Positions 4,738-40,412 of a stretch of 64,000 nt of DNA are shown here, one piece after another. The notes under the pieces were generated by a model. The model did not search any database and was not told the origin of the DNA. It saw only the letters and a program-made list of their open reading frames with translations. Numbering within the stretch: the stretch's first letter is position 1; each line of letters starts with the position of its first letter. Both the position numbers and the translations under genes were made by a program. Origin of the DNA: Eubacteriales bacterium (GTDB lineage: Bacteria; Bacillota; Clostridia; Oscillospirales; CAG-272); NCBI GenBank assembly GCA_045652425.1, contig JAZRUG010000017.1, positions 16,003-80,002 of the forward strand. The letters run 5' to 3'.

Positions 4738-5115
4738 TTATGCGAGATATGCTATTACCTCTACCTCAACCAATGCACCTTTCGGTAACTCCTTTACCGC
4801 AAAGCAGCTACGCGCGGGGGCAGACGTTATATATTTTGCATATACTTCATTAAATGCCGCAAAGTCTGCAATATCCGCCAAAAAGCAAGTCGTCTTTACC
4901 ACGTTATCAAATGTAGCTCCCCCTGCTTCAAGAACTGCCGCAAGGTTCTTCATAACCTGCTCTGCCTGTTCTTTGATACCAACAGCATCTATATTGCCTG
5001 TTTCAGCATTAATCGGAAGCGTTCCCGACGTATAAATAATATTGTTCACCATAATCGCCTGAGAATAAGGTCCTATCGCCTTCGGCGCTTTATCTGTAGA
5101 AATCTTGTTAATCAT
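4738..5115 (-). CDS. ridA: RidA/YjgF family reactive-intermediate deaminase
   Basis: 125 aa with KAPKAIGPYSQA...TSGTLPI...VKTTCFL...AR..VEV, the canonical family signature. Confidence 0.9.
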   Translation of the reverse strand: MINKISTDKAPKAIGPYSQAIMVNNIIYTSGTLPINAETGNIDAVGIKEQAEQVMKNLAAVLEAGGATFDNVVKTTCFLADIADFAAFNEVYAKYITSAPARSCFAVKELPKGALVEVEVIAYLA

Positions 5116-5307
5116 AAAGAAATACCCCCTTCTTTTTCTTCATTATATCATACTTTTCCCGAAAATAAATAGATTTTGAAAAATCGCTCGTTTTTCTGTA
5201 TTGATTTTTATTAATACTCGCTATAGGTTTTTTCAATTTGCGAAGGGTTGACATATATGATATAATGTAAAGACTAATGATTTACAAGAAGGAAAAGGGA
5301 CGAATAT

Positions 5308-6216
5308 ATGACCATTCAACAATGCAACTATGTTCTGACTATTGCAAAAGCAGGCTCTTTTAACGAAGCGGCAAAACAGCTTTTCATCGCGCAATCCACC
5401 TTGTCTTTAAGCATAAAATCGCTTGAAAACGAACTTGGAATAAAAATATTCGAGCGTTCCGGAAACGGTGTTTTTCTTACCGACGACGGCTCGGAATTTG
5501 TCAAATATGCTCGGCAGATTGTTGAAAACAGTAATTTTGTTCAAGAAAGATATAAATCTCCAAACGTTCACCAGAAGTTATTTATCGTAACACAGCATTA
5601 CGACTTTATCGCCGATATTTTCGGCAAGATGTTAGGCGAAATGCCCGATTGTGATTACAACTTCGCGCTGAAAGAAATTCAAACTCACGACGTCATATCG
5701 GAGATTGAAAAATCCCACAGCGACATTGGGGTTATCGCCATAAAAGGAAGCGATTCCGATATATTAAAACGATACATAAACAAAAAGGGCGTAACGTTTA
5801 CCCCCGTCTTAAAGGCAGCTCCTCATATTTATATGAGAAAAGAACACCCATTGGCAAACAGAGAAAAGCTTACAAGAGCTGACCTGCGCGATTACCCATA
5901 TATCGCCTACGAGCAGGGTGAACACAATACCCCGTTCTTCACAGAAGAATTAACGCAAGGTATCCCCGGAAACAAGCTCGTAACCATAAGCGACAGAGCG
6001 ACTCTTATGAACGTGCTTATGATTTCCGACTCCTACACTATCGGTACGGGAATTATGCCCTCGGCGCTTAACAAAGGATATATCGTCAGCGTCCCCCTTG
6101 AAAGCGATGATTTTTATATGATAGGATACCTTTTAAACGAAAACAAAAAGACCTCACCTTTGGTTGAAAAGTTTATAAAAATGCTTTGCGAAATGGAAGA
6201 AAGTATAGAAAAATGA
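5308..6216 (+). CDS. LysR-family transcriptional regulator
   Basis: N-terminal HTH (IQQCNYVLTIAKAGSFNEAAKQLFIAQSTLSLSIKSLENELGIKIFER) followed by a substrate-binding domain of typical length. Confidence 0.9.
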   Translation: MTIQQCNYVLTIAKAGSFNEAAKQLFIAQSTLSLSIKSLENELGIKIFERSGNGVFLTDDGSEFVKYARQIVENSNFVQERYKSPNVHQKLFIVTQHYDFIADIFGKMLGEMPDCDYNFALKEIQTHDVISEIEKSHSDIGVIAIKGSDSDILKRYINKKGVTFTPVLKAAPHIYMRKEHPLANREKLTRADLRDYPYIAYEQGEHNTPFFTEELTQGIPGNKLVTISDRATLMNVLMISDSYTIGTGIMPSALNKGYIVSVPLESDDFYMIGYLLNENKKTSPLVEKFIKMLCEMEESIEK

Positions 6217-6857
6217 CTCATATAGTTATGGTTATACTTGAGGTTATCGGCACAATAGCTTTTGCCGTAACAGGCGCGTTTCTGTCGGTAAAAAGACACC
6301 TCGACATTTTCGGTGTCGTATTTATCGGCTGTATCACGGCTGTGGGTGGCGGTATAACAAGAGATATAATAATCGGTAAGTTTCCGCCTACGATATTTTC
6401 ACATACACCAATATTGCTGATAGCCGCAATAACCTCTGTAATAGTATTTTTGATTTCCTATCTTCACGCAGATAAGTTTGAACAGATACGCGAGAAAACG
6501 GAAAAGATAAACAACGTTTTTGATGCAATTGGTCTTTCAGCCTTTGCTGTAACAGGTACGGAAGCGGTATATCACAGCGAATACGGCGGATATTTTGTAC
6601 TTGCTGTACTTATGGGTATGCTGACAGGGGTGGGCGGCGGAATATTCCGTGACATACTTGTAACAGAAACTCCCTACGTTTTGAAAAAGCACGTATATGC
6701 ATTGGCGGCATTGATAGGCAGTATAATATACTACGTATTGCGTGGTTTTGTCGGCATCACGCTTTCTTCAATAATCGCAATGGTTCTCATATTTTCCATT
6801 CGTATGTTGGCAACCAAATATCATTGGAAACTACCCAAGGTAAAACTTGATAATTAG
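6213..6857 (+). CDS. UPF0126 (YadS/YicG, TRIC-like) membrane protein
   Basis: Two UPF0126 repeats (GGGITRDI, GGGIFRDIL) in a multi-TM protein. I prefer ATG 6213, which overlaps the LysR stop (ATGA), over the track start at 6186. Confidence 0.8.
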   Translation: MTHIVMVILEVIGTIAFAVTGAFLSVKRHLDIFGVVFIGCITAVGGGITRDIIIGKFPPTIFSHTPILLIAAITSVIVFLISYLHADKFEQIREKTEKINNVFDAIGLSAFAVTGTEAVYHSEYGGYFVLAVLMGMLTGVGGGIFRDILVTETPYVLKKHVYALAALIGSIIYYVLRGFVGITLSSIIAMVLIFSIRMLATKYHWKLPKVKLDN

Positions 6858-6894
6858 GAATAAATAAAGCACTAACAAAAAGTCTGTACACACA

Positions 6895-7243
6895 GAAAGC
6901 CCTTTCCTGTGGGTAGCGAAGCGGCGTGAGCGTAATGAATGACAGTCCGGTGGACTGTCAGAACGCGAGCGTGACCGAACCGCAGTAGAGGGTGGATGCC
7001 GTTTAAAAAAGGCGATATTTTCTACATTGAGATTTTAATCAGTAGAAAATATCGCCTTTTTAGGCAGACGGGATGAGAGTTCAGCTTTAAGTTTTTGAGC
7101 CTTTATCCGTTGAATATTACTTTAAGTTTAGTTTACAAAGATAATTGTTTTCTTATTACATAGGAATAAAGGCTGTTCTAATCGTTTACCGAGCTCTCAT
7201 CCCGTCACGCTTCGCGTGCCACCCTTCCCACAGGAAAGGGCTA
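6895..7243. repeat. Compound nested inverted-repeat intergenic element
   Basis: Outer inverted repeat agccctttcctgtggg (6897-6913) / cccacaggaaagggct (7228-7243). Inner pair gacgggatgagag (7068-7080) / ctctcatcccgtc (7194-7206). Internal hairpins gacagtccggtggactgtc (6941-6959) and a perfect 20-bp stem aaaaaggcgatattttctac/gtagaaaatatcgccttttt (7006-7061). Confidence 0.75.
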
Positions 7244-31148: not shown

Positions 31149-32852
31149 TTATATGGCGCTTGGCAAATATTCTACCGCCACACCTTGTCTTGTATTGAGT
31201 TTAACAGGTCTTGGCTTTGGTACTTCGGGTAGAGCGATACATCCTATGAACTTGTAGTGGATTTTGAAGTGTTGTGTACGATTCTTGCCCACGCCCTCAA
31301 TATGACAAACCTCTATGCGTTCAATTAATTCTTTGAGTAGTGGTGCTGTCAGCTTGTCCATCTCCATAAACTTGCGAACGGCGGATATGAAGTTATCCTT
31401 ATTTTGCTTAATACTGTCGATAGATAACAAACGTTCGTGGGCATCTTCATTCTTGGCTTTCAGTTCCATTCGTTCCTCTCCGTACTTTTGAGATTGAATC
31501 ATAAACCATTCGTCTGTAACTTCACCGTTTATGTTCTTCTCATAAAGTTTTTCAAAGAATACCTCAACCTTTTTCATACGAGATTTTGATTTTTGAATTA
31601 CCGACTCCAAGTGCTTTTGCTCTTTGATGGCATCCTCGTTGCTTTTCTCGGCTAACATCTCGGCAAAGGTGTCCTTATCGTCATAGAGAAACTGAGCTAA
31701 CCACCGAAGTTCCATCATCACAATTTGCTCCAAAGCATCCGCACGGATATAATGGGTGGATTTGCAGGTCCCACGATTGCCTTTGTAGTTACCGCAACTA
31801 AAGAACGGTATATCTGTTTTGTCGTGCTTTACGTTAAACCACAGTTTGCTACCGCAGTCAGCACAGTAAACTAAATCGCAAAACATATTCTTTTCAGCGT
31901 TAGTGGGTTTTGGTGCTCGACGTTTCGTTTTAGCAACTAACTCTTGCACTCGCTCAAAGGTTTCTCGGTCAATGATTGGCTCGTGAACGTTTTTGAAGAT
32001 AACCCAATTCTCTTTGGGATTATCAATGCGTTGCTTATGCTTAAAACTTTTTGAGTAAGTTTTGAAGTTGATAATATCACCGCAATATTCTTGCTGAGAT
32101 AATATCTTCGCCACCGTAGTCTTGCACCATTTATAAGGGTTCTCTTGTGTCTTTTTACCGCCACGCCCAAGCCCTTGACTTTGCCAATATGCCATCGGTA
32201 CCAAGACCTTGTTTTCTTGCAAAATGCGAGCAATCGTTTCGTTGCCTTTGCCCTCCAAACACATACGAAAGATATCTCTCACAACTTGTGCAACATTGTT
32301 GTCAATGTTCCATTTCTTTTTGTTCATAGGATCTTTCATATATCCGTAAGGCGGTTGAGATAACGGTTCTCCCGCATTTCCACGAAGTCTGTGGGATGAA
32401 CGAACCTTTCGGGAAATATCCCTTGCATACATCTCGTTCATAACATTGCGGAATGGCGTAAGTTCGTTTTCACCATCTGCACTATCCACACAGTCGTTGA
32501 CTGCAATGAAACGGATATCTCTGTCTGGGAAATAGGTGTCAGTGTAAAATCCAACTTGCAGATAATCTCGACCAATTCGGGACATATCTTTTACAATTAC
32601 AACCGACACATAACCCATATCAATATCCTCAAGTAACTTTTGAAAGCCTGGTCGATTGAAGTTTGTGCCGGTATATCCGTCATCTACATAATTACGTGTG
32701 TTACTGAACCTGTGCTCTTTGGCATATTTCTGCAAGAGCTTCTTTTGGTTGATGATGGAGTTGCTATCGTTGTCGGTTCCGTCATCACGAGAGAGTCTGC
32801 AGTATAGGGCGGTAATTCCTATTTGCTCTTTCTTTTTTGATTTCGACTGCAT
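31149..32852 (-). CDS. Large serine recombinase (resolvase N-terminus, recombinase + zinc-ribbon, DUF4368-like C-terminus)
   Basis: ALYCRLSRDDG (catalytic Ser region), VIVKDMSRIGRDY, and a Cys cluster CADCGSKLW...CGNYKG..GTC. Start at ATG 32852 behind AGGAGG. Confidence 0.9.
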   Translation of the reverse strand: MQSKSKKKEQIGITALYCRLSRDDGTDNDSNSIINQKKLLQKYAKEHRFSNTRNYVDDGYTGTNFNRPGFQKLLEDIDMGYVSVVIVKDMSRIGRDYLQVGFYTDTYFPDRDIRFIAVNDCVDSADGENELTPFRNVMNEMYARDISRKVRSSHRLRGNAGEPLSQPPYGYMKDPMNKKKWNIDNNVAQVVRDIFRMCLEGKGNETIARILQENKVLVPMAYWQSQGLGRGGKKTQENPYKWCKTTVAKILSQQEYCGDIINFKTYSKSFKHKQRIDNPKENWVIFKNVHEPIIDRETFERVQELVAKTKRRAPKPTNAEKNMFCDLVYCADCGSKLWFNVKHDKTDIPFFSCGNYKGNRGTCKSTHYIRADALEQIVMMELRWLAQFLYDDKDTFAEMLAEKSNEDAIKEQKHLESVIQKSKSRMKKVEVFFEKLYEKNINGEVTDEWFMIQSQKYGEERMELKAKNEDAHERLLSIDSIKQNKDNFISAVRKFMEMDKLTAPLLKELIERIEVCHIEGVGKNRTQHFKIHYKFIGCIALPEVPKPRPVKLNTRQGVAVEYLPSAI

Positions 32853-33082
32853 TAGTCCTCCTTTCCGGCAGTCGAACACGCTTTTCCAACTGCCATTATA
32901 TCAAATCCGCATTTTCTGTTCAAATGTGCAAATTGTTCTTTTAACGCTTTGCCAAAGCGCTGGGTGATACTTTGGTGTTCTTTGATTTTGGCAGTTTGAA
33001 AAGATGAGCTAATAATATATTTGACACCATTGATTTCATATTCGTGGTTCCGATCTACAAGTCCCACAATAAATTTGTCCAT
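32852..33082 (-). CDS. Small protein translationally coupled to the recombinase, function unknown
   Basis: 76-aa ORF with AGGAGG upstream. Its TAA shares a base with the recombinase ATG (TAATG). Confidence 0.5.
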   Translation of the reverse strand: MDKFIVGLVDRNHEYEINGVKYIISSSFQTAKIKEHQSITQRFGKALKEQFAHLNRKCGFDIMAVGKACSTAGKED

Positions 33083-33217: not shown

Positions 33218-33585
33218 TAATGACATTATGATGTAATGCCATCCCCTAAAGAAACATTGCCGTTCTACCTAAATGCAGTTCCTGCCTCGGATTTTCACCG
33301 TGACGTTGTTTCGCTCGCTATGAACAAGATCAAAGGTTATCGCAAAATCGTATCTCATTTAGACGGTCATTCAATTTTCACCCCCCTCACATAACGTCAA
33401 AAACCGAGGAAAATATGCATAGTTTTTTAAAAAATATTTTACCCCTCATGTGGTAGGCATCGAAAAAGGCTAAAACTAAACACAAAACTGAAATTATTGC
33501 AAAAAATAAAAGCCGCCACACAACATCTAAAAAGGATGCCGTATGACGACGCAGATCATAAAAGGAGTTATTTAGTTTTTTGCTG

Positions 33586-33614
33586 TTTACATTTGCTATA
33601 AAAAATGTTATAAT
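33586..33614 (+). promoter_or_regulatory. Sigma-70-type promoter of the six-gene plus-strand operon
   Basis: TTTACA (33586-33591), 17-nt spacer, extended -10 TGtTATAAT (33606-33614), about 37 nt upstream of ATG 33651. Confidence 0.55.
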
Positions 33615-33650
33615 ATTTTTAACGTATATCAACACAATGGAGATAATGTT

Positions 33651-33848
33651 ATGAATTTTGCAGAAAAAGTAAAATATGTTAGAACAGAATTAAAGTTGTC
33701 TCAAGAAGATTTGGCGCGAGAATTGGGTGTGAGCTTTGCAACTATCAATCGATGGGAGAATGGTAGCTATAATCCAAGTCGGTTAGCAAAAAAGGCTTTT
33801 GAAGACTTTTGTAGCAATCAAAATATCAAATTTGAGGTAGCAATATGA
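33651..33848 (+). CDS. XRE-family HTH protein (possible controller of the downstream R-M genes)
   Basis: 65 aa: KVKYVRTELKLSQEDLARELGVSFATINRWENG. Its stop overlaps the next start (ATGA). Confidence 0.8.
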   Translation: MNFAEKVKYVRTELKLSQEDLARELGVSFATINRWENGSYNPSRLAKKAFEDFCSNQNIKFEVAI

Positions 33849-34681
33849 GAATAGTACAAGATTTTACCGACAATGAGCTTAAGGCCGTTCTAAATGATTT
33901 TTATTCCTATTTTAAAACAGGTTTCGAATTCGAAGAGTTCTTAAAACCTTTTTTAGAGTCTATCGGTCTTTCTGAAGTTGTTGTTACCAAAAAAACAGGT
34001 GATGGCGGTATAGATTTAGAAGCGGTAAAGGAAGGCCTTTCTGAAATCAATAATGTAGATAGCGTGAAATATCGAATTCAGGCAAAAAGGAATTCACCTT
34101 CAAGAACTATTCCTCCTGAGAAAATCGATGCATTAAGAGGTAACCTTTGTTTCAATGAAAAAGGATTATTTATCACCACTGCTAAGGTATCTGACAAAGC
34201 AAAAGAGCAAGCTATTTCTAAGGATCCATCCAAACCGGTCTTTGTTATCGACGGAATTGATTTAGTCAGAATTTGCATCGACAGACAAATTGGATTTGCC
34301 TATAAACCTATATTCAGTAAAAGTGCGCTCGACTTGTTTACAAACAAAAATAAATCTCCTGAAATCAATACAAATCTTTCATCCGAGTTAAGTTGTGTTG
34401 AAAAAACAATTACAACTAACGATGTTCGTGTATACATAATTTCACTTCCAAGAATTATCGTAGACAAAATTGAAAATAATAACGAAAAGCATCCTATGAA
34501 ACTCATTGTAAACAGTGACGATTCTTATGATGTGACATTTTGTCCAAGTAGAAACTATCTTTCTCAAGTTACGAGTATATTCCGAAAATACGGATTATTA
34601 CAAGAAGACGGAACTATAGTCGAGAAAAAAGCAAAATGGGCAATTGATGCACAACAAAATATTTATTTAACGATATTGTGA
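33845..34681 (+). CDS. Mrr-cat-type PD-(D/E)xK restriction endonuclease with an extra C-terminal (possibly B3-like DNA-binding) domain
   Basis: FEFEEFLKPFLESIGL...KKTGDGGIDLEAV...YRIQAKR is the Mrr_cat signature. The C-terminal ~110 aa (VRVYIISLPRIIVDKI...) was assigned only by loose resemblance. Confidence 0.7.
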   Translation: MRIVQDFTDNELKAVLNDFYSYFKTGFEFEEFLKPFLESIGLSEVVVTKKTGDGGIDLEAVKEGLSEINNVDSVKYRIQAKRNSPSRTIPPEKIDALRGNLCFNEKGLFITTAKVSDKAKEQAISKDPSKPVFVIDGIDLVRICIDRQIGFAYKPIFSKSALDLFTNKNKSPEINTNLSSELSCVEKTITTNDVRVYIISLPRIIVDKIENNNEKHPMKLIVNSDDSYDVTFCPSRNYLSQVTSIFRKYGLLQEDGTIVEKKAKWAIDAQQNIYLTIL

Positions 34682-34688
34682 GGATACT

Positions 34689-35723
34689 ATGAATTATATT
34701 GGTTCTAAATATTCTTTAATAGATTTTTTGGAAGAGTCTATTAATAAAACCTTAAAATTGTGCGGCGAAGATAGAAAATCGTCTGAAATGGTGTTTGCCG
34801 ATTTGTTTGCAGGAACTGGCGTGGTTAGTGGTTCGTTTAAAAAACAAGGGTATTCTATAATAGCAAACGACATTCAATACTATAGTTACGTTATAACAAA
34901 ACACATGATTGAAAATAACGGAAACTTGGATAAAAAACATTGCAATGAACTTATAGATGAATTAAACCGTTTGGACGGGATAGAAGGTTTCATTTATGAA
35001 AACTATTCTTATGAAGGAACTGCAGAACAAGAATTTAGAAGAATGTATTTTTCGGAATACAATGCTAAGAAATGCGATGCAATAAGAACTACTATAGAAG
35101 AATGGCTTGTTAACGGTAAAATAACTGAAAATGAATACTATTTCCTACTAGGTTCCTTGATTAATAGCATTGACAAATGCGCCAATACTGCTTCAGTGTA
35201 TGGGGCTTTTTTGAAAAAATTAAAGAAATCCGCATTGAAAGAAATGGAATTATCACCACTTCCAATTATGCAAGGTTCTGTTGAATGCAGAGTTTATAAT
35301 GAAGATATAAGTGAGTTAATCAAAAACGTTTCCGGCGATATTCTTTATCTAGATCCCCCATACAATGCCCGTCAGTATTGCTCTAATTATCATATGCTCG
35401 AAACGATAGCCAGATATGATAATCCTAAAATCAAAGGCAAAACAGGATTAAGAAATTATGAAGATCAAAAAAGCGTGTTTTGTATGAAAAACAAGGTTGA
35501 AGCTGCATTTGCCGAATTAATTAAAAACGCAAAATTCAAATACATATTTTTAAGTTATAACAACGAGGGATTAATGTCTTTCGATACTATTGAAAAAATA
35601 ATGAAAAAATATGGCAAATATAAAGTCTATATGCAACAATATCGCCGTTTTAAAGCGGATAATGCTAGAGACTGCAAATCTGATTCAACGATTGAATATT
35701 TACACTGCTTAATAAAGGAGTAA
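34689..35723 (+). CDS. D12 (Dam)-class N6-adenine DNA methyltransferase
   Basis: N-terminal YIGSK, motif I FADLFAGTGVV, motif IV LYLDPPYN. Confidence 0.85.
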   Translation: MNYIGSKYSLIDFLEESINKTLKLCGEDRKSSEMVFADLFAGTGVVSGSFKKQGYSIIANDIQYYSYVITKHMIENNGNLDKKHCNELIDELNRLDGIEGFIYENYSYEGTAEQEFRRMYFSEYNAKKCDAIRTTIEEWLVNGKITENEYYFLLGSLINSIDKCANTASVYGAFLKKLKKSALKEMELSPLPIMQGSVECRVYNEDISELIKNVSGDILYLDPPYNARQYCSNYHMLETIARYDNPKIKGKTGLRNYEDQKSVFCMKNKVEAAFAELIKNAKFKYIFLSYNNEGLMSFDTIEKIMKKYGKYKVYMQQYRRFKADNARDCKSDSTIEYLHCLIKE

Positions 35724-35726
35724 CTC

Positions 35727-36884
35727 ATGGAAGAAATGAACATCAAAGAAGAATTGAATTTAGACGGAATCGACACAGAAATCGAAGAAAATATAGTAGA
35801 ATCTAGCGAAATTTCTATGCAAAGTTTGGAAAACACTATTGTTGTTCCGATGGACTTATCTGTAGAAATGGTTACGGCGTGGTATAAGTCAAAAAAACTA
35901 TCATTAGATCCTGTGTTTCAAAGGAGATATGTGTGGAACGATGTACTAAAATCTGCCTTTATAGAATCACTTATTTTAAATGTTCCTATTCCTTCGTTAA
36001 TGCTTGCTAACGATACAGAGAATAACAGATTTATAGTTATTGATGGAAAGCAAAGACTTAATGCTATTATAAGCTTTATTGCGCCTGAAAACGAAGGCAA
36101 AGGGTTTAGACTTAAAGGATTAAATGTTTTAAAAGAACTAAACGGTTACACTTATAAAAAATTGCTTTCTGATAGCACAAAAACTCAGTATTTGAGCAAA
36201 ATTGAGAATGCTTTAATTAAAACCAGTGTTCTAAAAAATTATAATACCGATATTCTATACTTTATATTTAATAGGTTAAATGGTGGTGGGGTCCCTCTTT
36301 CGCCTCACGAACTAAGACAGTCATTATATGCAGGACAATTTATCAACTTTATTAACGAATACTCTGCAGAATCTAAAGGTATAAGACGAATGCTTAATCT
36401 AAAGAACCCTGACAAACGTATGCGCGATGCCGAATTGTTAGTGCGTTATTATGCATTCAAATATTATGGAGCAGAGTATAACGGAAATATAAACGAGTTT
36501 TTTAATAAAACTTGTGAAAAATTAAATCTCGAATGGCAAACAAAAGCAGAAACCGTTAAAAAAGATGCGCAAGAATTTGAGTTTGCGGTGGAATTTATTT
36601 ATTCGCACTTTGGCGACGATGCTTTTAAAGTGTTCTTTGTAAAAGAGACGGGAGAAGAATATTTCGGCCCATTCAATAGACCGATGTTTGATTTACTAAC
36701 TAGTATCTTTTCCGACTCTTCAAAAAGAGAGTTTGTTGAAAAGAAAAACATCAACTTGAAAGAGTTTGTAATCAATTTATTTAAAACAAACAAGGATTTT
36801 GCAGATGCTTTCTTGCCAACAACCCACTCTAAGGAAAAGAATAATACTAGAATAACTGAGTTTACAAAAGCTCTCTTTGTATAG
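35727..36884 (+). CDS. DUF262 (ParB/GmrS-like) domain protein lacking a recognisable DUF1524/HNH C-terminus
   Basis: DPVFQRRYVWN, VIDGKQRLNAI and FNRLNGGGVPLSPHELRQS are the three DUF262 hallmarks. Confidence 0.8.
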   Translation: MEEMNIKEELNLDGIDTEIEENIVESSEISMQSLENTIVVPMDLSVEMVTAWYKSKKLSLDPVFQRRYVWNDVLKSAFIESLILNVPIPSLMLANDTENNRFIVIDGKQRLNAIISFIAPENEGKGFRLKGLNVLKELNGYTYKKLLSDSTKTQYLSKIENALIKTSVLKNYNTDILYFIFNRLNGGGVPLSPHELRQSLYAGQFINFINEYSAESKGIRRMLNLKNPDKRMRDAELLVRYYAFKYYGAEYNGNINEFFNKTCEKLNLEWQTKAETVKKDAQEFEFAVEFIYSHFGDDAFKVFFVKETGEEYFGPFNRPMFDLLTSIFSDSSKREFVEKKNINLKEFVINLFKTNKDFADAFLPTTHSKEKNNTRITEFTKALFV

Positions 36885-36895
36885 GGATATAGGAT

Positions 36896-37477
36896 ATGAC
36901 GAATGAATATCAACATCTCCAGCGAAGGCTTCAATCTATTTCTGCAACATTTGAAGTTTTAATGCCGGATGATCCGTTGGATGAGGCATTAGAAGATAAG
37001 CAAAACATAATTAAATCATATATTTTGTTATGCCACGCTGAGTTTGAAAAGTATTTCGAAGACATTGCTTTGGGGATAATTAAAAAAGCAAAGGAACTAT
37101 ATGATTCGAGGAATGAAACAAGTGAGCCGTTGCTTCATCTAGCCTTGATGTTAAAAAAAGATTTTACTAATGAAGGTGCTAAGGCAAGACTTGATAAATT
37201 GTTTTCAAATTATCGAGCACTTCTTGATAAAAATCACGGAATCAAGAAAGCAAACATCGACGAAATGTTTGCTCCTTTGGGTATGCCGATAAGTGGCATG
37301 TCCGATACATACCTAGAAGCGTTGGAAAGTTTCGGGAAGAAACGAGGACAAATTGCTCACAATGTTAAAGAGGCGTTAACTACTACATATAGTTTTTCAA
37401 TTGAAAAAACTGCAATAAATGCGTTGCTTAATGATACTTTAAGCGAAATTGATGAAAAAGCAGAGAGGTTACTTTGA
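36896..37477 (+). CDS. HEPN-superfamily-like protein (Rx4H motif)
   Basis: 193-aa all-helical-looking protein with KKRGQIAHN (R-x4-H) near the C-terminus and CHAEFEKYFEDIA in the N-terminal half. Resembles MAE_28990/RiboL-PSP-type HEPN by pattern only. Confidence 0.5.
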   Translation: MTNEYQHLQRRLQSISATFEVLMPDDPLDEALEDKQNIIKSYILLCHAEFEKYFEDIALGIIKKAKELYDSRNETSEPLLHLALMLKKDFTNEGAKARLDKLFSNYRALLDKNHGIKKANIDEMFAPLGMPISGMSDTYLEALESFGKKRGQIAHNVKEALTTTYSFSIEKTAINALLNDTLSEIDEKAERLL

Positions 37478-38268
37478 TTATGGGTAAAATAAACGACCTT
37501 GATATGTCAAAATGGAAGGAAATTAATGATGTATGGTTAGATAGTCTTTGGATAATCCCACAAAGAGATAATTCCGGAGCTCATGATGGTCATTATCATG
37601 GAAATTTTGTTCCTCAAATACCGCATCAGCTTTTGACACGATACACGAAAGCTGGAGATTTTGTTTTAGACCCTTTTGCCGGAAGCGGAACCACCTTGAT
37701 AGAAGCTCAACGGATGGGTAGAAATTCTATAGGTATCGAATTGCAACAAGATGTAGCTATGGAGGCTATTAAAAGAATTCACTCAGAACAAAGAGAAGGA
37801 ATTATAGCTGATACATTTGTGGATGATAGCAGAACCTTTGATACGAATAGAATATTAAGCACATACAATATTAAAAATGTGCAGTTTATAATTTATCATC
37901 CTCCATATTGGGATATTATAAAATTTAGTGAAGACGGAAATGATTTATCTAATGCTAAAACCTTAGAGGCATTCATAGAAAATTTCCGATTAGTTGTGCG
38001 AAACACTTCGGCAATATTGGAGAAAGGAAGATATTGTGCCGTAGTAATCGGAGATAAGTATGCAAATAGCCAACTAGTTCCGCTGGGCTTCTACTGTATG
38101 CAAGCAATGCAGCAAGAAGGGCTAACTCTTAAAGCCACGATTGTAAAGAATTTTGAAGAAACTAAGGGCAAAGCAAATCAAAAAGCCCTTTGGAGACAAA
38201 GAGCTTTGCAAAATGGTTTGTATCTATTTAAACACGAATATATTTTCTTATTCAAAAAGGAGAAGTGA
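37474..38268 (+). CDS. Amino (N6A or N4C) DNA methyltransferase, motif I before motif IV
   Basis: VLDPFAGSGTTLIEA (motif I) followed about 70 aa later by IIYHPPYWD (motif IV). 4-nt overlap with the preceding gene. Confidence 0.8.
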   Translation: MIMGKINDLDMSKWKEINDVWLDSLWIIPQRDNSGAHDGHYHGNFVPQIPHQLLTRYTKAGDFVLDPFAGSGTTLIEAQRMGRNSIGIELQQDVAMEAIKRIHSEQREGIIADTFVDDSRTFDTNRILSTYNIKNVQFIIYHPPYWDIIKFSEDGNDLSNAKTLEAFIENFRLVVRNTSAILEKGRYCAVVIGDKYANSQLVPLGFYCMQAMQQEGLTLKATIVKNFEETKGKANQKALWRQRALQNGLYLFKHEYIFLFKKEK

Positions 38269-38284
38269 AACACTTCTCCTTTTT
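38254..38284. terminator. Bidirectional terminator between the convergent operons
   Basis: Stem aggagaagtg/cacttctcct, flanked by AAAA and TTTT. Confidence 0.7.
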
Positions 38285-38285
38285 G

Positions 38286-39434
38286 CTATACTATAATTAA
38301 TTTTGAATCAACTTCTTTGAAATGGAGTATTTTGTTTTGATAAAAATCTACGTTTTTTAAATTTAAAGCGCTCCAATCCTTGGAAAGAACTTTATTCTCT
38401 ATATCATTTAACCTATCTTTTTTCAATTTACTTGCATTAAACAAACCATCTGATATTATTATTGGATAAACATTAACTTTTTTATTTTTGTTTAAATAAA
38501 ATGGCAATATATAATCTTTTAGCCAAACTAAATAACCCTCAATTTGGTTTATAATACCGATAGAAACCCCTTCGTCTTTTAATTCAATTAAAGAAATATC
38601 AACACTATTTTCATCTTCTTGAATTGTCATGACATCAATGCGATGTTCTCCAAAACTACACATTACCTCATTTCCAATCCATTTAATTTCTTTTTCATTG
38701 GTTAAGATTTTTATGTAATCTGAACTTTTGAGTATCGTTACTGTAAGAAATTGTATATAATGTTCAAAAGCCTTGCCTTTTTTATACTTTTCCAACATGT
38801 TCAACAACAAGTTTTCAGTAACGTCAATTTTTCTATCAGATGAATATTGATTAGTATTGTTGGTTTTTTCTATTTCCTGATTTTCTAGGTTGAAAGAAAA
38901 GTGTTCTCCATTCAATACGGTATTATCCCGTGAAATTCTTTTTAAAAACAAGTCATATTCCGCATCGGTAATCATAGTACAACCACGATTACCGCCGAGC
39001 TTTCTATAAATAAGAGACCAACACAATTGATTGGGTTTAGTAAGACCTTCTAACGAATCGAGATAATTGTATTCGCTTATTCCTTTTTGAAAAACCTTAT
39101 ATGGTTTAATTAAAATTCTATATGTTAATTTTTTTTGAAGTTCTGAAAACAAATAATTGTCATCATCATTGGGGTCAACAAAGAAATCACTGACCGCTTC
39201 AAAAACACCGTAAAATTTAGAAATTCCGGTCACAAAAAAGATGATCTTATCTCCTTTTCTAATTCTAGCAAGGTCTACCATCATGCCAACCGATCGTTTC
39301 TCGTTTTGAGTATGTATTGTTATAGATGGATCAAAAATGAAATCAGTAGATACTTCTGAAGCACCTGTTCCTGCGAACATATTCTCCAAATGCACCTTAA
39401 AAGTATTTTGGTTGACAATAAAAACGTGTGCCAT
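38286..39434 (-). CDS. Two-domain protein: N-terminal PUA/EVE-like candidate and C-terminal PD-(D/E)xK nuclease candidate
   Basis: Start at ATG 39434, 1 nt after the HNH gene stop (TAAAATG). N-terminal pattern IRKGDKIIFFVTGISKFYGVFEAVSDFFVDP...YRILIKP. C-terminal HRIDVMT...ISLIELKD fits D...E-x-K. Both assignments are by eye. Confidence 0.45.
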   Translation of the reverse strand: MAHVFIVNQNTFKVHLENMFAGTGASEVSTDFIFDPSITIHTQNEKRSVGMMVDLARIRKGDKIIFFVTGISKFYGVFEAVSDFFVDPNDDDNYLFSELQKKLTYRILIKPYKVFQKGISEYNYLDSLEGLTKPNQLCWSLIYRKLGGNRGCTMITDAEYDLFLKRISRDNTVLNGEHFSFNLENQEIEKTNNTNQYSSDRKIDVTENLLLNMLEKYKKGKAFEHYIQFLTVTILKSSDYIKILTNEKEIKWIGNEVMCSFGEHRIDVMTIQEDENSVDISLIELKDEGVSIGIINQIEGYLVWLKDYILPFYLNKNKKVNVYPIIISDGLFNASKLKKDRLNDIENKVLSKDWSALNLKNVDFYQNKILHFKEVDSKLIIV

Positions 39435-39435
39435 T

Positions 39436-40047
39436 TTACTTCTTCTCCTCCAAATGACTTCTAAATTCAATTGGATCATACCAATAACAGCCCTCGCACG
39501 CGTTTTCCTCATTGTTATGAGTTGGGCCACCTTTATAGTATGCCATTGGATAACCTAGTTGCCTTGCATCATAACGAATACCCGTTCTGCGGCATTCGAT
39601 GCAAAATTGACGCTTTGCGTCGTTTGCAGCTTTGCTTAATGGTTGAAAATCTTCGTATCTTTGATCTTCATTAAGCATTACTCGTCCTTCATTTTTCATT
39701 CCGTTTTTATGATCGACTTCCGGGTTAGATGTTCCAAGAACCACACATCGTTGAGATTGCATTGCGCGTTTAATAGTAGGATCAATATAAGACGAATACG
39801 GGTCACCTGTATTAAATCCGACAGTTCGTATTGCATCTGTTCTGTTGCCCGGAGTTATGCTTTTATCTCTTTCAACAATATACTTTCTGCCAAAAGAACC
39901 ATCATCTCTTGACCATCCAGCACCATTAAGTAGCTGCAATCCTTGATATTCACCTACAAATTCATCCACGCTAACCCATCTGCTACATCCGTTTTCATCG
40001 ATCTGAGCTAATTCTTCAAATAATTGTATTTTTGTCTTTCTTGGCAT
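39436..40047 (-). CDS. HNH (beta-beta-alpha-Me) type restriction endonuclease candidate
   Basis: EVDHKNGMKNEG...QPLSKAANDAKR plus Cys pairs CIEC...CEGC. Immediately downstream of a C-protein gene. Confidence 0.65.
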   Translation of the reverse strand: MPRKTKIQLFEELAQIDENGCSRWVSVDEFVGEYQGLQLLNGAGWSRDDGSFGRKYIVERDKSITPGNRTDAIRTVGFNTGDPYSSYIDPTIKRAMQSQRCVVLGTSNPEVDHKNGMKNEGRVMLNEDQRYEDFQPLSKAANDAKRQFCIECRRTGIRYDARQLGYPMAYYKGGPTHNNEENACEGCYWYDPIEFRSHLEEKK

Positions 40048-40058
40048 TTTGAAACTCC

Positions 40059-40268
40059 TTATTCAAAAGTAAAAAATTCTGCTAAACTAACATTTAATGC
40101 TGTTGCTAACTTTTCAATGTTTACAATAGATATATTGCGTTTACCTCTTTCAACACTGGTTATGTATGTCCTGTCAAGTTCGACAATGGCAGCCAATTCT
40201 TCTTGACTAACACCGAGTTTGTTGCGTAATTCTCTTATTCTTTTTCCAACAGTTTGTTTAATGTCCAT
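40059..40268 (-). CDS. R-M controller (C) protein, XRE HTH
   Basis: MDIKQTVGKRIRELRNKLGVSQEELAAIVELDRTYITSVERGKRNISIVNIEKLATAL matches the C-protein pattern (ERGxRNxS). Start at ATG 40268 behind GAGGAG. Confidence 0.85.
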   Translation of the reverse strand: MDIKQTVGKRIRELRNKLGVSQEELAAIVELDRTYITSVERGKRNISIVNIEKLATALNVSLAEFFTFE

Positions 40269-40311
40269 AATATCTCCTCGCTTAGTGAGTATATATAAAT
40301 TATACAAAAAG

Positions 40312-40342
40312 GTGACTCATTTCACAACGGACTTTAAGTCAC
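40312..40342 (-). promoter_or_regulatory. C-box operator overlapping the promoter of the C-R operon
   Basis: Minus strand reads GTGACTTAAAGTCCGTTGTGAAATGAGTCAC. It contains a perfect GACT-N3-AGTC box plus a degenerate second box with outer GTGACT/AGTCAC symmetry, followed by TGTATAAT and then the RBS. Confidence 0.65.
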
Positions 40343-40412
40343 ATAATGCTCTTGATGTCTTTTACAAAAATAAAAGCCGAACCTATCAATAGATAGATTC
40401 AGCTAAATGTGT

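Follow-up and report, generated by a model that had tools for sequence, protein, structure and literature searches.

A DUF262–HEPN gene pair, predicted to be a divergent relative of the anti-phage system PD-T4-2, within a restriction-modification cassette of a Clostridia bacterium

A stretch of 64,000 nucleotides from an Eubacteriales bacterium (GenBank assembly GCA_045652425.1, contig JAZRUG010000017.1, positions 16,003 to 80,002 of the forward strand; hereafter the window, with positions counted from its first letter) carries two adjacent plus-strand genes, encoding a DUF262/ParB-like protein of 385 amino acids (aa; 35727-36884), predicted to be a sensor or switch, and a RiboL-PSP-family HEPN protein of 193 aa (36896-37477), predicted to be an RNase effector. 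An earlier note, made from the letters of the window, had read two open reading frames (ORFs) at these positions, 11 nt apart, as was confirmed here. Judged by sequence comparison, the pair is a divergent relative of the PD-T4-2 system with an NsnA-like sensor, and represents a known and validated kind of system, not a new kind. New here are the obligate pairing of the two genes, the conserved catalytic dyad of the HEPN protein, and a clade of such pairs embedded in restriction-modification (R-M) gene arrays. The explanation that we favour, and regard as moderately probable, is that of a divergent anti-phage pair, in which the DUF262 protein would sense and the HEPN protein would cut RNA, as a second layer of defence beside R-M.

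The DUF262 and HEPN proteins and their pairing

The DUF262 protein was matched by the Pfam profile GmrSD_N/DUF262 at residues 54-201 (E 1.6e-25), and its C-terminal half was without any Pfam match. The three DUF262 hallmarks that had been recognized by eye are all present, FQRRYVW at residues 64-70, DGKQR at 106-110 and FNRLN at 181-185, and as FQRRxVW, DGKQR and FxRLN they are invariant in 26 homologues with identity down to 35% (alignment A2). In the same 26 homologues, the conserved residues of the C-terminal half are R231, D234, E236, R240, N267, W270, N317, R318 and D322. Neither an HNH or DHxxP signature nor a [DE]H dipeptide was found in this half, which contains two histidines in all (H294 and H367), neither of them conserved. 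The AlphaFold model (predicted local distance difference test, pLDDT, 85) was compared with the PDB using Foldseek, giving BrxU as the best match (probability 0.98), together with SspE and the ParB/Noc/KorB CTPases, and no nuclease fold; the BrxU and SspE alignments cover 441-584 columns, well past the DUF262 domain of ~150 residues. Pfam, the inspection of His and [DE]H, and Foldseek altogether agree with the earlier claim that this protein lacks a DUF1524 or HNH domain, and a nuclease in the C-terminal half, which would have spoken against the two-component reading, was not found. By its sequence, the protein is predicted to contain a nucleoside triphosphatase (NTPase)-type domain with intact motifs I-III and no nuclease domain, and its C-terminal domain is modelled as helical, of the ParBDB kind as in NsnA, GmrSD and SspE.

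Among PADLOC models, NsnA gave the highest score for the DUF262 protein (E 2.9e-65) over nearly the full length, residues 5-381 aligning with positions 10-377 of the 385-position profile, PD-T4-2_A was matched by residues 50-298 (E 7.7e-44), and REase_II matched weakly across the DUF262 domain (E 4e-6). Sequence-profile searches of the PDB with the DUF262 protein and with the HEPN protein gave no meaningful match, and likewise nothing was obtained with the neighbouring D12-class methyltransferase (MTase). All 26 homologues of A2 carry a strongly acidic N-terminal tail of 36-54 residues, with 10-17 D/E against 1-4 K/R; in the window it comprises residues 1-43 (35727-35850), of which residues 1-27 are predicted to be disordered (pLDDT < 50). 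This tail may be autoinhibitory or DNA-mimicking.

The partner protein was matched by Pfam HEPN_RiboL-PSP (PF18735) with E 1.8e-15 and 57.8 bits, above the gathering score of 28.4, and the same profile matched 75 of the 81 partner proteins collected from related loci. The motif R150-x4-H155 is invariant in alignments of 24, 13 and 81 relatives, and among the 81 partner proteins (18-68% identity) the only invariant columns are R150, H155 and G115. An Rx4H motif is expected ~0.18 times by chance in a protein of the HEPN composition, and the motif alone is not significant; it is the invariance of R150 and H155 across 81 diverged partners that represents conservation far beyond chance. A second motif, R107-x6-H114, fits the looser pattern Rx4-6H and is unconserved. 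The prediction of a HEPN partner with a conserved Rx4H thus agrees with both the PF18735 match and the 81 homologues, and the RGQIAH residues, the lack of conservation of which would have been damaging to it, proved to be conserved at R150 and H155. The linkage of ParB/DUF262 proteins with MAE_28990-type HEPN proteins, mentioned in the earlier note, stands as to the ParB–HEPN operon, which is listed in a catalogue of 2013 (see below), but the family named there is not the main one: the protein belongs to RiboL-PSP (PF18735), and a precomputed match to PF18737 (MAE_28990) is also present in two of 34 close homologues and in one of the 81 partner proteins. As to the HEPN fold, the model is confident and all-helical (pLDDT 91), and the structural matches to HEPN proteins are weak to moderate; in the structure search of BFVD the second-best match was a phage MAE_28990-like HEPN protein (probability 0.93, template modelling score 0.49). 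Taken from its sequence, the protein is a single-domain, predicted RNase, the most conserved feature of which is the catalytic-type Rx4H dyad.

A metagenome scan with a DUF262 profile gave more than 544 relatives, from which 80 loci were kept, and a scan of viral contigs gave 14 full-length relatives. The downstream gene was scored only where at least 300 nt of sequence past the DUF262 gene was available. In all the loci thus scored, 66 of 66 metagenomic and 13 of 13 on viral contigs (79 of 79), the next gene downstream was a HEPN homologue in the same orientation. The start of the HEPN gene is mostly located at most ~20 nt past the DUF262 stop, or overlaps the stop, and the hidden Markov model E-values of the downstream HEPN proteins ranged from ~1e-11, for copies cut at a contig end, to 1e-56. 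The DUF262–HEPN pairing is obligate, and the view that the two genes act as one unit is upheld.

When 1.84 billion representatives were searched with the HEPN profile, 1526 clusters (50% identity level) were detected, and among the best 150 of these 1526 clusters nearly all proteins are 175-240 aa long, a single-domain size. A scan of genome contigs with this profile gave 7 loci only, and tblastn of the HEPN protein against plasmids gave no match. The closest relatives were found in gut Clostridia (from sheep, roe-deer and other sources) and in Christensenellaceae and Ruminococcus metagenome-assembled genomes. Twelve viral contigs of IMG/VR, ~7-42 kb in length (L106-L117; numbers with L designate the related loci), and in addition L118, bear the pair, and therefore the module is also carried on (pro)phages.

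In a distant relative (L002, 4419-7992; L003, 2224-5797), the DUF262 gene is split into two pieces by IS1595, with a second IS1595 just upstream, and the HEPN ORF is intact. On an Escherichia coli plasmid (CP057779.1; L136, 2953-4548), an NsnA-like DUF262 protein of 350 aa is followed by a non-HEPN protein of 180 aa, and this type of gene pair occurs on IncF-type plasmids of E. coli and Salmonella. These plasmid DUF262 genes (H20-H25) were considered as PD-T4-2 copies and rejected, the 180-aa protein matching neither any PADLOC model nor the HEPN profile; it is a different, uncharacterised partner.

The restriction-modification cassette and its conservation

In the window, the pair is sandwiched between the genes for a D12-class MTase and an N6_N4-class MTase, and a convergent IceA gene follows. 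The earlier two-gene reading stands for the pair itself but lacked this R-M context. The order D12 MTase, DUF262, HEPN, N6_N4 MTase with convergent IceA was found again in L014, L004/5/16, L001/15, L017, L010/11, L008, L006/7 and L022. The same genes are present in L012, in which the IceA-like gene is co-oriented and placed between HEPN and the N6_N4 MTase.

Protein identities to the window copies were compared at five of these loci. In the order D12 MTase, DUF262, HEPN, N6_N4 MTase and IceA, they are 95, 92, 89, 98 and 94% in L014; 87, 79, 75, 95 and 73% in L004; 77, 65, 55, 84 and 81% in L017; 80, 65, 35, 84 and 66% in L008; and 73, 53, 41, 63 and 28% in L012. Across cassettes the HEPN identity drops to 35-55% while the MTases hold 63-84%. 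As estimated from these values, HEPN evolves faster than the other cassette genes, except in L012, where IceA is more diverged; such rapid evolution is as expected of an effector under conflict.

A sister subclade, with DUF262 proteins 46-49% identical, shows the same sandwich made of non-orthologous parts. In L021 and L025 the order is an HTH-fused Dam-like D12 MTase, DUF262, HEPN and a beta-class N6_N4 MTase; a DpnII restriction endonuclease (REase) follows the second MTase in L021, and the contig of L025 ends inside the MTase gene. In L026 a small PD-(D/E)XK protein and a full GmrSD follow the second MTase, and in L134 a DpnII cassette is followed by DUF262, HEPN, an N6_N4 MTase and an HNH protein. 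The gene order is thus kept with non-orthologous MTases and with four kinds of REase, namely IceA, DpnII, the small PD-(D/E)XK protein and the HNH protein.

Among 15 non-redundant loci of the clade (DUF262 identity of at least 44%), 14 are embedded in arrays of MTase and REase genes, and in most embedded loci an N6_N4 MTase gene comes directly after the HEPN gene. In a neighbour-joining tree the embedded loci form one clade of two subclades, and a stand-alone locus, L023, is nested inside it. Relatives at 42% identity or less come from viral contigs, Proteobacteria, and metagenomes of soil and water. A local scan detected neither a D12 nor an N6_N4 MTase directly beside the genes of these relatives; three of them gave weak D12-like matches 1.5-3 kb off, and nothing closer.

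The whole mobile defence cassette of the window was delimited to 33583-40344 (no strand assigned; 6.8 kb) from blastn homology limits and composition. Homology to L014, L004, L001, L017, L006 and L022 starts earliest at 33583 (L014 and L004), begins further inside the cassette with the other four loci, and ends by ~40344. The G+C content of the cassette is low, 0.31-0.37 against 0.39-0.44 in the flanks.

The plus-strand operon begins with a gene for an HTH_3 regulator resembling C proteins (33651-33848; Pfam HTH_3, E 5.8e-13), which is kept in L001, L004 and L014. Ahead of this gene, at 33586-33614 (plus strand), is the only good promoter-like site; it is sigma-70-like, TTTACA-17-TATAAT and TG-extended, with 11 of 12 positions matching, and is a match to the consensus only. 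The second gene encodes an Mrr_cat restriction endonuclease-like protein of 278 aa (33845-34681, plus strand; Pfam Mrr_cat, E 3.6e-18), an accessory and dispensable component, absent in L001, L008, L010, L012 and L017. The D12-class N6-adenine DNA MTase of 344 aa (34689-35723, plus strand; PF02086, E 1.7e-48; PADLOC MTase_II, E 3.8e-117) precedes the DUF262 gene. In the gap of 11 nt between DUF262 and HEPN, an AGGA ribosome-binding site stands ahead of the HEPN ATG. The N6_N4-class DNA MTase is listed at 37474-38268 (plus strand; PF01555, E 2.2e-26; PADLOC MTase_II, E 4e-110); from the sequence and homologue alignments its true start is likely the ATG at 37480, 2 nt past the HEPN stop. In this MTase the Pfam profile is matched in permuted order, the part binding S-adenosylmethionine coming first and then HPPY (by eye), whereas the MTases of DpnII-type cassettes (L025, 7764-8485; L026, 3594-4406) are colinear with the profile; therefore different MTase classes fill the slot after the HEPN gene.

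A perfect 15-bp inverted repeat with a 3-nt loop was detected by a repeat scan between the convergent operons (38253-38285, no strand assigned), and this hairpin is likely a bidirectional terminator closing the operon. From the HTH gene to the N6_N4 MTase gene, all intergenic gaps or overlaps are at most 11 nt. The promoter-like site, the tight spacing and the terminal hairpin are signals that the DUF262–HEPN pair may be co-transcribed with two MTases of m6A/m4C type (N6-methyladenine and N4-methylcytosine).

The content of the slot that separates the N6_N4 MTase from IceA differs among cassettes. Some have nothing there, and others carry an EVE-like protein, an AIPR (Abi) protein or a 282-aa protein of unknown kind. 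In the window the slot is occupied by an ORF of 414 aa (38286-39530, minus strand; Pfam EVE, E 1.1e-3, under the gathering score), with a weak EVE/PUA-like N-terminal region and a C-terminal PD-(D/E)XK-like motif, IDV...IELK (by eye); the product is possibly a modification-dependent nuclease, as its sequence features suggest. This EVE-like protein is 39-48% identical in L006 and L014, and is replaced or absent elsewhere; the slots compared with that of the window were L001 9399-10247, L022 5313-7091 and L006 6745-7869. The listed GTG start of the ORF overlaps the IceA gene by 95 nt, and the true start is probably an ATG near 39434 (MAHVFIV...), giving a product of ~382 aa. The IceA/NlaIII-like restriction endonuclease of 203 aa (39436-40047, minus strand; Pfam ICEA, E 1.3e-58) and the controller (C) protein of its operon (40059-40307, minus strand; PADLOC Control_protein, E 2.3e-24; Pfam HTH_3, E 2.6e-17) complete the cassette.

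Several further observations were made in and around the cassettes. A Ymh-family (HEPN) protein gene is located after the second MTase in L012 (4770-5471), and the full GmrSD of L026 (DUF262 plus DUF1524, 695 aa; 5025-7112) is located two genes past the DUF262–HEPN pair. A large serine recombinase (Resolvase, Recombinase, Zn ribbon and DUF4368; 31149-32879, minus strand) adjoins the cassette of the window, and related serine recombinases lie near the cassettes of L001 (13724-15265), L014 (1063-2217) and L134 (12578-14218). The neighbouring recombinases suggest an integrative element of Clostridia as the carrier of the cassette. Just beyond each cassette end, at 33502-33515 and 40366-40379, is one copy of a perfect direct repeat of 14 nt, AAAAATAAAAGCCG, the copies sitting in two similar terminator-like hairpins (33550-33512 and 40404-40375, both on the minus strand). 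It could be due to chance, to the similarity of the terminators, or to a trace of insertion; as the sole candidate for attachment sites, and located inside similar terminators, it was not convincing and was rejected. In the whole window, several 4-bp palindromes are strongly depleted relative to a second-order Markov expectation (GGCC 0.27, CATG 0.37, CTAG 0.38, GATC 0.43 and CCGG 0.52), and the avoidance of CATG fits a long exposure to NlaIII/IceA-type restriction. An Rfam scan of 31-42 kb gave sub-threshold chance matches only, and no candidate for an RNA antitoxin.

Relation to known systems and possible modes of action

PD-T4-2 of E. coli ECOR65, listed as 'DUF262, HEPN', protects against T4 both as a K-12 clone and in the native strain (Vassallo et al. 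2022, PMC9519451). In the published HHpred annotation, component A is DUF262 (PF03235)/DndB/ParBc, and component B is HEPN_RiboL-PSP (PF18735, 97.8%) and HEPN_MAE_28990 (PF18737, 96.9%) (PMC9519451). The statement that no experimental characterisation is known is therefore wrong at the level of architecture. The comparison with the window pair was made through PADLOC models and the published domain annotation. Both systems are two-gene operons, in which a DUF262/ParB-like protein without DUF1524 is followed by a small HEPN protein of the RiboL-PSP/MAE_28990 type. They differ in span, 1540 bp for PD-T4-2, located at 338334-339873 of the ECOR65 contig QOYX01000002, against 1751 bp (385 + 193 aa) for the window pair, the proteins of which are longer, and in setting, PD-T4-2 being stand-alone in E. 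coli whereas the window pair, in a gut Clostridia-type host, is flanked on either side by an MTase gene of an R-M cassette.

Likeness to Menshen (NsnABC) is found in the sensor, which has the full-length architecture of NsnA, a ParB-DUF262 domain followed by the helical ParBDB domain. Methylases are frequently linked with Menshen as well, and a reading of the methylation state has been raised there (Millman 2022; Li et al. 2025, PMC12065111). The cassette of the window differs in having neither the ABC ATPase NsnB nor the inPIN-nuclease NsnC, a HEPN effector being located directly downstream instead; no ATPase was found in the Pfam and PADLOC annotation of the cassette, in which the downstream genes are those for HEPN and an MTase. 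Membership in Menshen was rejected for the lack of both NsnB and NsnC. With the type IV enzymes GmrSD, BrxU and SspE, in which DUF262 senses DNA modification in an NTP-dependent manner and cleavage is performed by DUF1524, the DUF262 protein of the window shares the N-terminal DUF262 NTPase domain and the helical domain following it, BrxU and SspE being its best structural matches; it differs by the lack of a fused DUF1524 or HNH domain, for which GmrSD-type membership was rejected, and in the predicted output, RNA cleavage by a separate protein.

PrrC, an anticodon nuclease of the HEPN superfamily, is encoded within the EcoprrI hsd operon (type Ic R-M), and linkage of HEPN with R-M has earlier been proposed as a general multi-pronged defence. 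The cassette of the window resembles PrrC-EcoprrI in that a HEPN gene lies inside an R-M operon and is tied to an NTPase regulatory module, an arrangement that suggests a second line of defence, but its NTPase is a separate ParB/DUF262 protein and not a fused ABC ATPase, and its R-M is of type II with two MTases. A survey of HEPN proteins lists RiboL-PSP-HEPN as 'operon with ParB' (Anantharaman et al. 2013, PMC3710099). Its comparative-genomic listings include the exact context of the window pair, but do not extend to the sandwich of two MTases or to its retention with non-orthologous R-M modules.

In the explanation favoured here, the DUF262/ParBDB protein would bind DNA and nucleotide and serve as infection sensor and switch, by analogy with GmrSD, BrxU and SspE. 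The trigger might be phage DNA, possibly modified as with these three systems, or a nucleotide state. Once triggered, the DUF262 protein would free or activate a HEPN dimer, and the HEPN protein, if it behaves as is known from HEPN biology, would cut RNA and stop translation, leading to protection of the abortive-infection or growth-arrest type. In the lineage of the window, the pair would most likely form an RNA-targeting second layer beside DNA restriction.

Several observations weigh against this explanation. NsnA outscores PD-T4-2_A in the DUF262 protein of the window and in all 26 relatives of A2, and therefore the kinship with PD-T4-2 is at the superfamily and architecture level; the HEPN protein is not matched by PADLOC PD-T4-2_B at E up to 0.1. 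In favour of the kinship, PD-T4-2_B (PDLC04028) weakly matched 11 of the 81 partner HEPN proteins, with a best E of 5.4e-5. A Foldseek search of the PDB with the HEPN model gave nothing significant, the best HEPN toxin having a probability of 0.41 and E > 1, and a literature search for a mechanistic study of PD-T4-2 found none. Moreover, the strict embedding of the clade among MTase genes, which a stand-alone model leaves unexplained, hints that the pair depends on modification or on R-M proteins. A functional wiring of the pair to the flanking MTases or REases, either as a PrrC-like guard or as a reader of an m6A self-mark with an RNA-cleaving abortive output, is possible but not likely; were it true, the order kept across non-orthologous MTases and four REase kinds would reflect selection for coupling.

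As a guard, the pair would be held inactive by the neighbouring R-M proteins, and the RNase would fire only once a phage has blocked restriction or modification, for instance by an anti-restriction protein. This we hold to be unlikely. The position of 14 of the 15 clade loci among MTase and REase genes, mostly with the N6_N4 MTase right after HEPN, argues for it, as do the survival of this arrangement with non-orthologous MTases and different REases, the PrrC precedent in the EcoprrI hsd operon and the proposed HEPN/R-M multi-pronged defence. Yet distant relatives and PD-T4-2 occur or work without a linked R-M, L023 stands alone although it falls inside the clade, and the embedded loci form a monophyletic clade, so that a single past insertion and joint inheritance thereafter could account for much of the linkage. 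Improbable, in our estimate, is an R-M-like system with RNase output, in which one of the flanking MTases marks self and the DUF262/ParBDB protein reads un- or differently methylated incoming DNA and activates HEPN. A D12 MTase gene directly precedes DUF262 in every IceA-type cassette and in most of the DpnII type, even where Mrr_cat is missing, and the minimal cassettes have two MTases and one REase; this idea has also been put forward for Menshen operons with linked methylases, and DUF262 domains of GmrSD, BrxU and SspE read DNA modification. Two MTases and one REase are also the classical DpnII layout (dpnM, dpnA and dpnB), so an extra partner is not needed to account for them. In addition, the DUF262 gene of L134 comes after the DpnII REase gene and not after a D12 MTase, the D12 MTases of the two subclades are non-orthologous though their DUF262 proteins are 46-49% identical, and stand-alone pairs exist without an MTase.

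In a toxin-antitoxin or addiction module, HEPN would be a constitutive toxin neutralised by DUF262, stabilising the cassette without phage sensing. HEPN toxins are common in toxin-antitoxin systems such as HEPN-MNT, and the pair forms a tight two-gene operon on mobile elements, with serine recombinases nearby in the window, L001 and L134. This reading is nevertheless quite improbable: the conserved NTPase motifs in a protein of 385 aa exceed the needs of a simple antitoxin, and PD-T4-2 came from a selection for phage protection. The intact HEPN ORF next to the IS1595-split DUF262 gene of L002 and L003 is a weak argument in the same direction, polar loss of HEPN expression being possible. Very improbable is the view that the DUF262/ParB-like protein is itself the DNase effector, with HEPN as an accessory or regulatory subunit. 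The 2013 survey named the linked partner 'ParB nuclease' (PMC3710099), and the weak REase_II match lies on the DUF262 domain; but in GmrSD, BrxU and SspE, DUF262 is the NTPase and sensor while DUF1524 cleaves, and the catalytic dyad comprises the most conserved residues of the HEPN partner, which argues that HEPN is active.

PD-T4-2-type systems have been validated, and the pair is now found to be obligate, widespread (more than 1000 HEPN clusters at the 50% level) and present also on viral contigs. The likely catalytic residues R150 and H155 and the putative switch residues DGKQR are pinpointed by conservation. Annotation of the PADLOC type would report an orphan 'NsnA' only, overlooking the system. 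The R-M-embedded clade provides a natural setting in which to ask whether a ParB-like NTPase couples the sensing of DNA or its modification to an RNase, and it bears on whether an RNase back-up of restriction, as known from PrrC, is more general.

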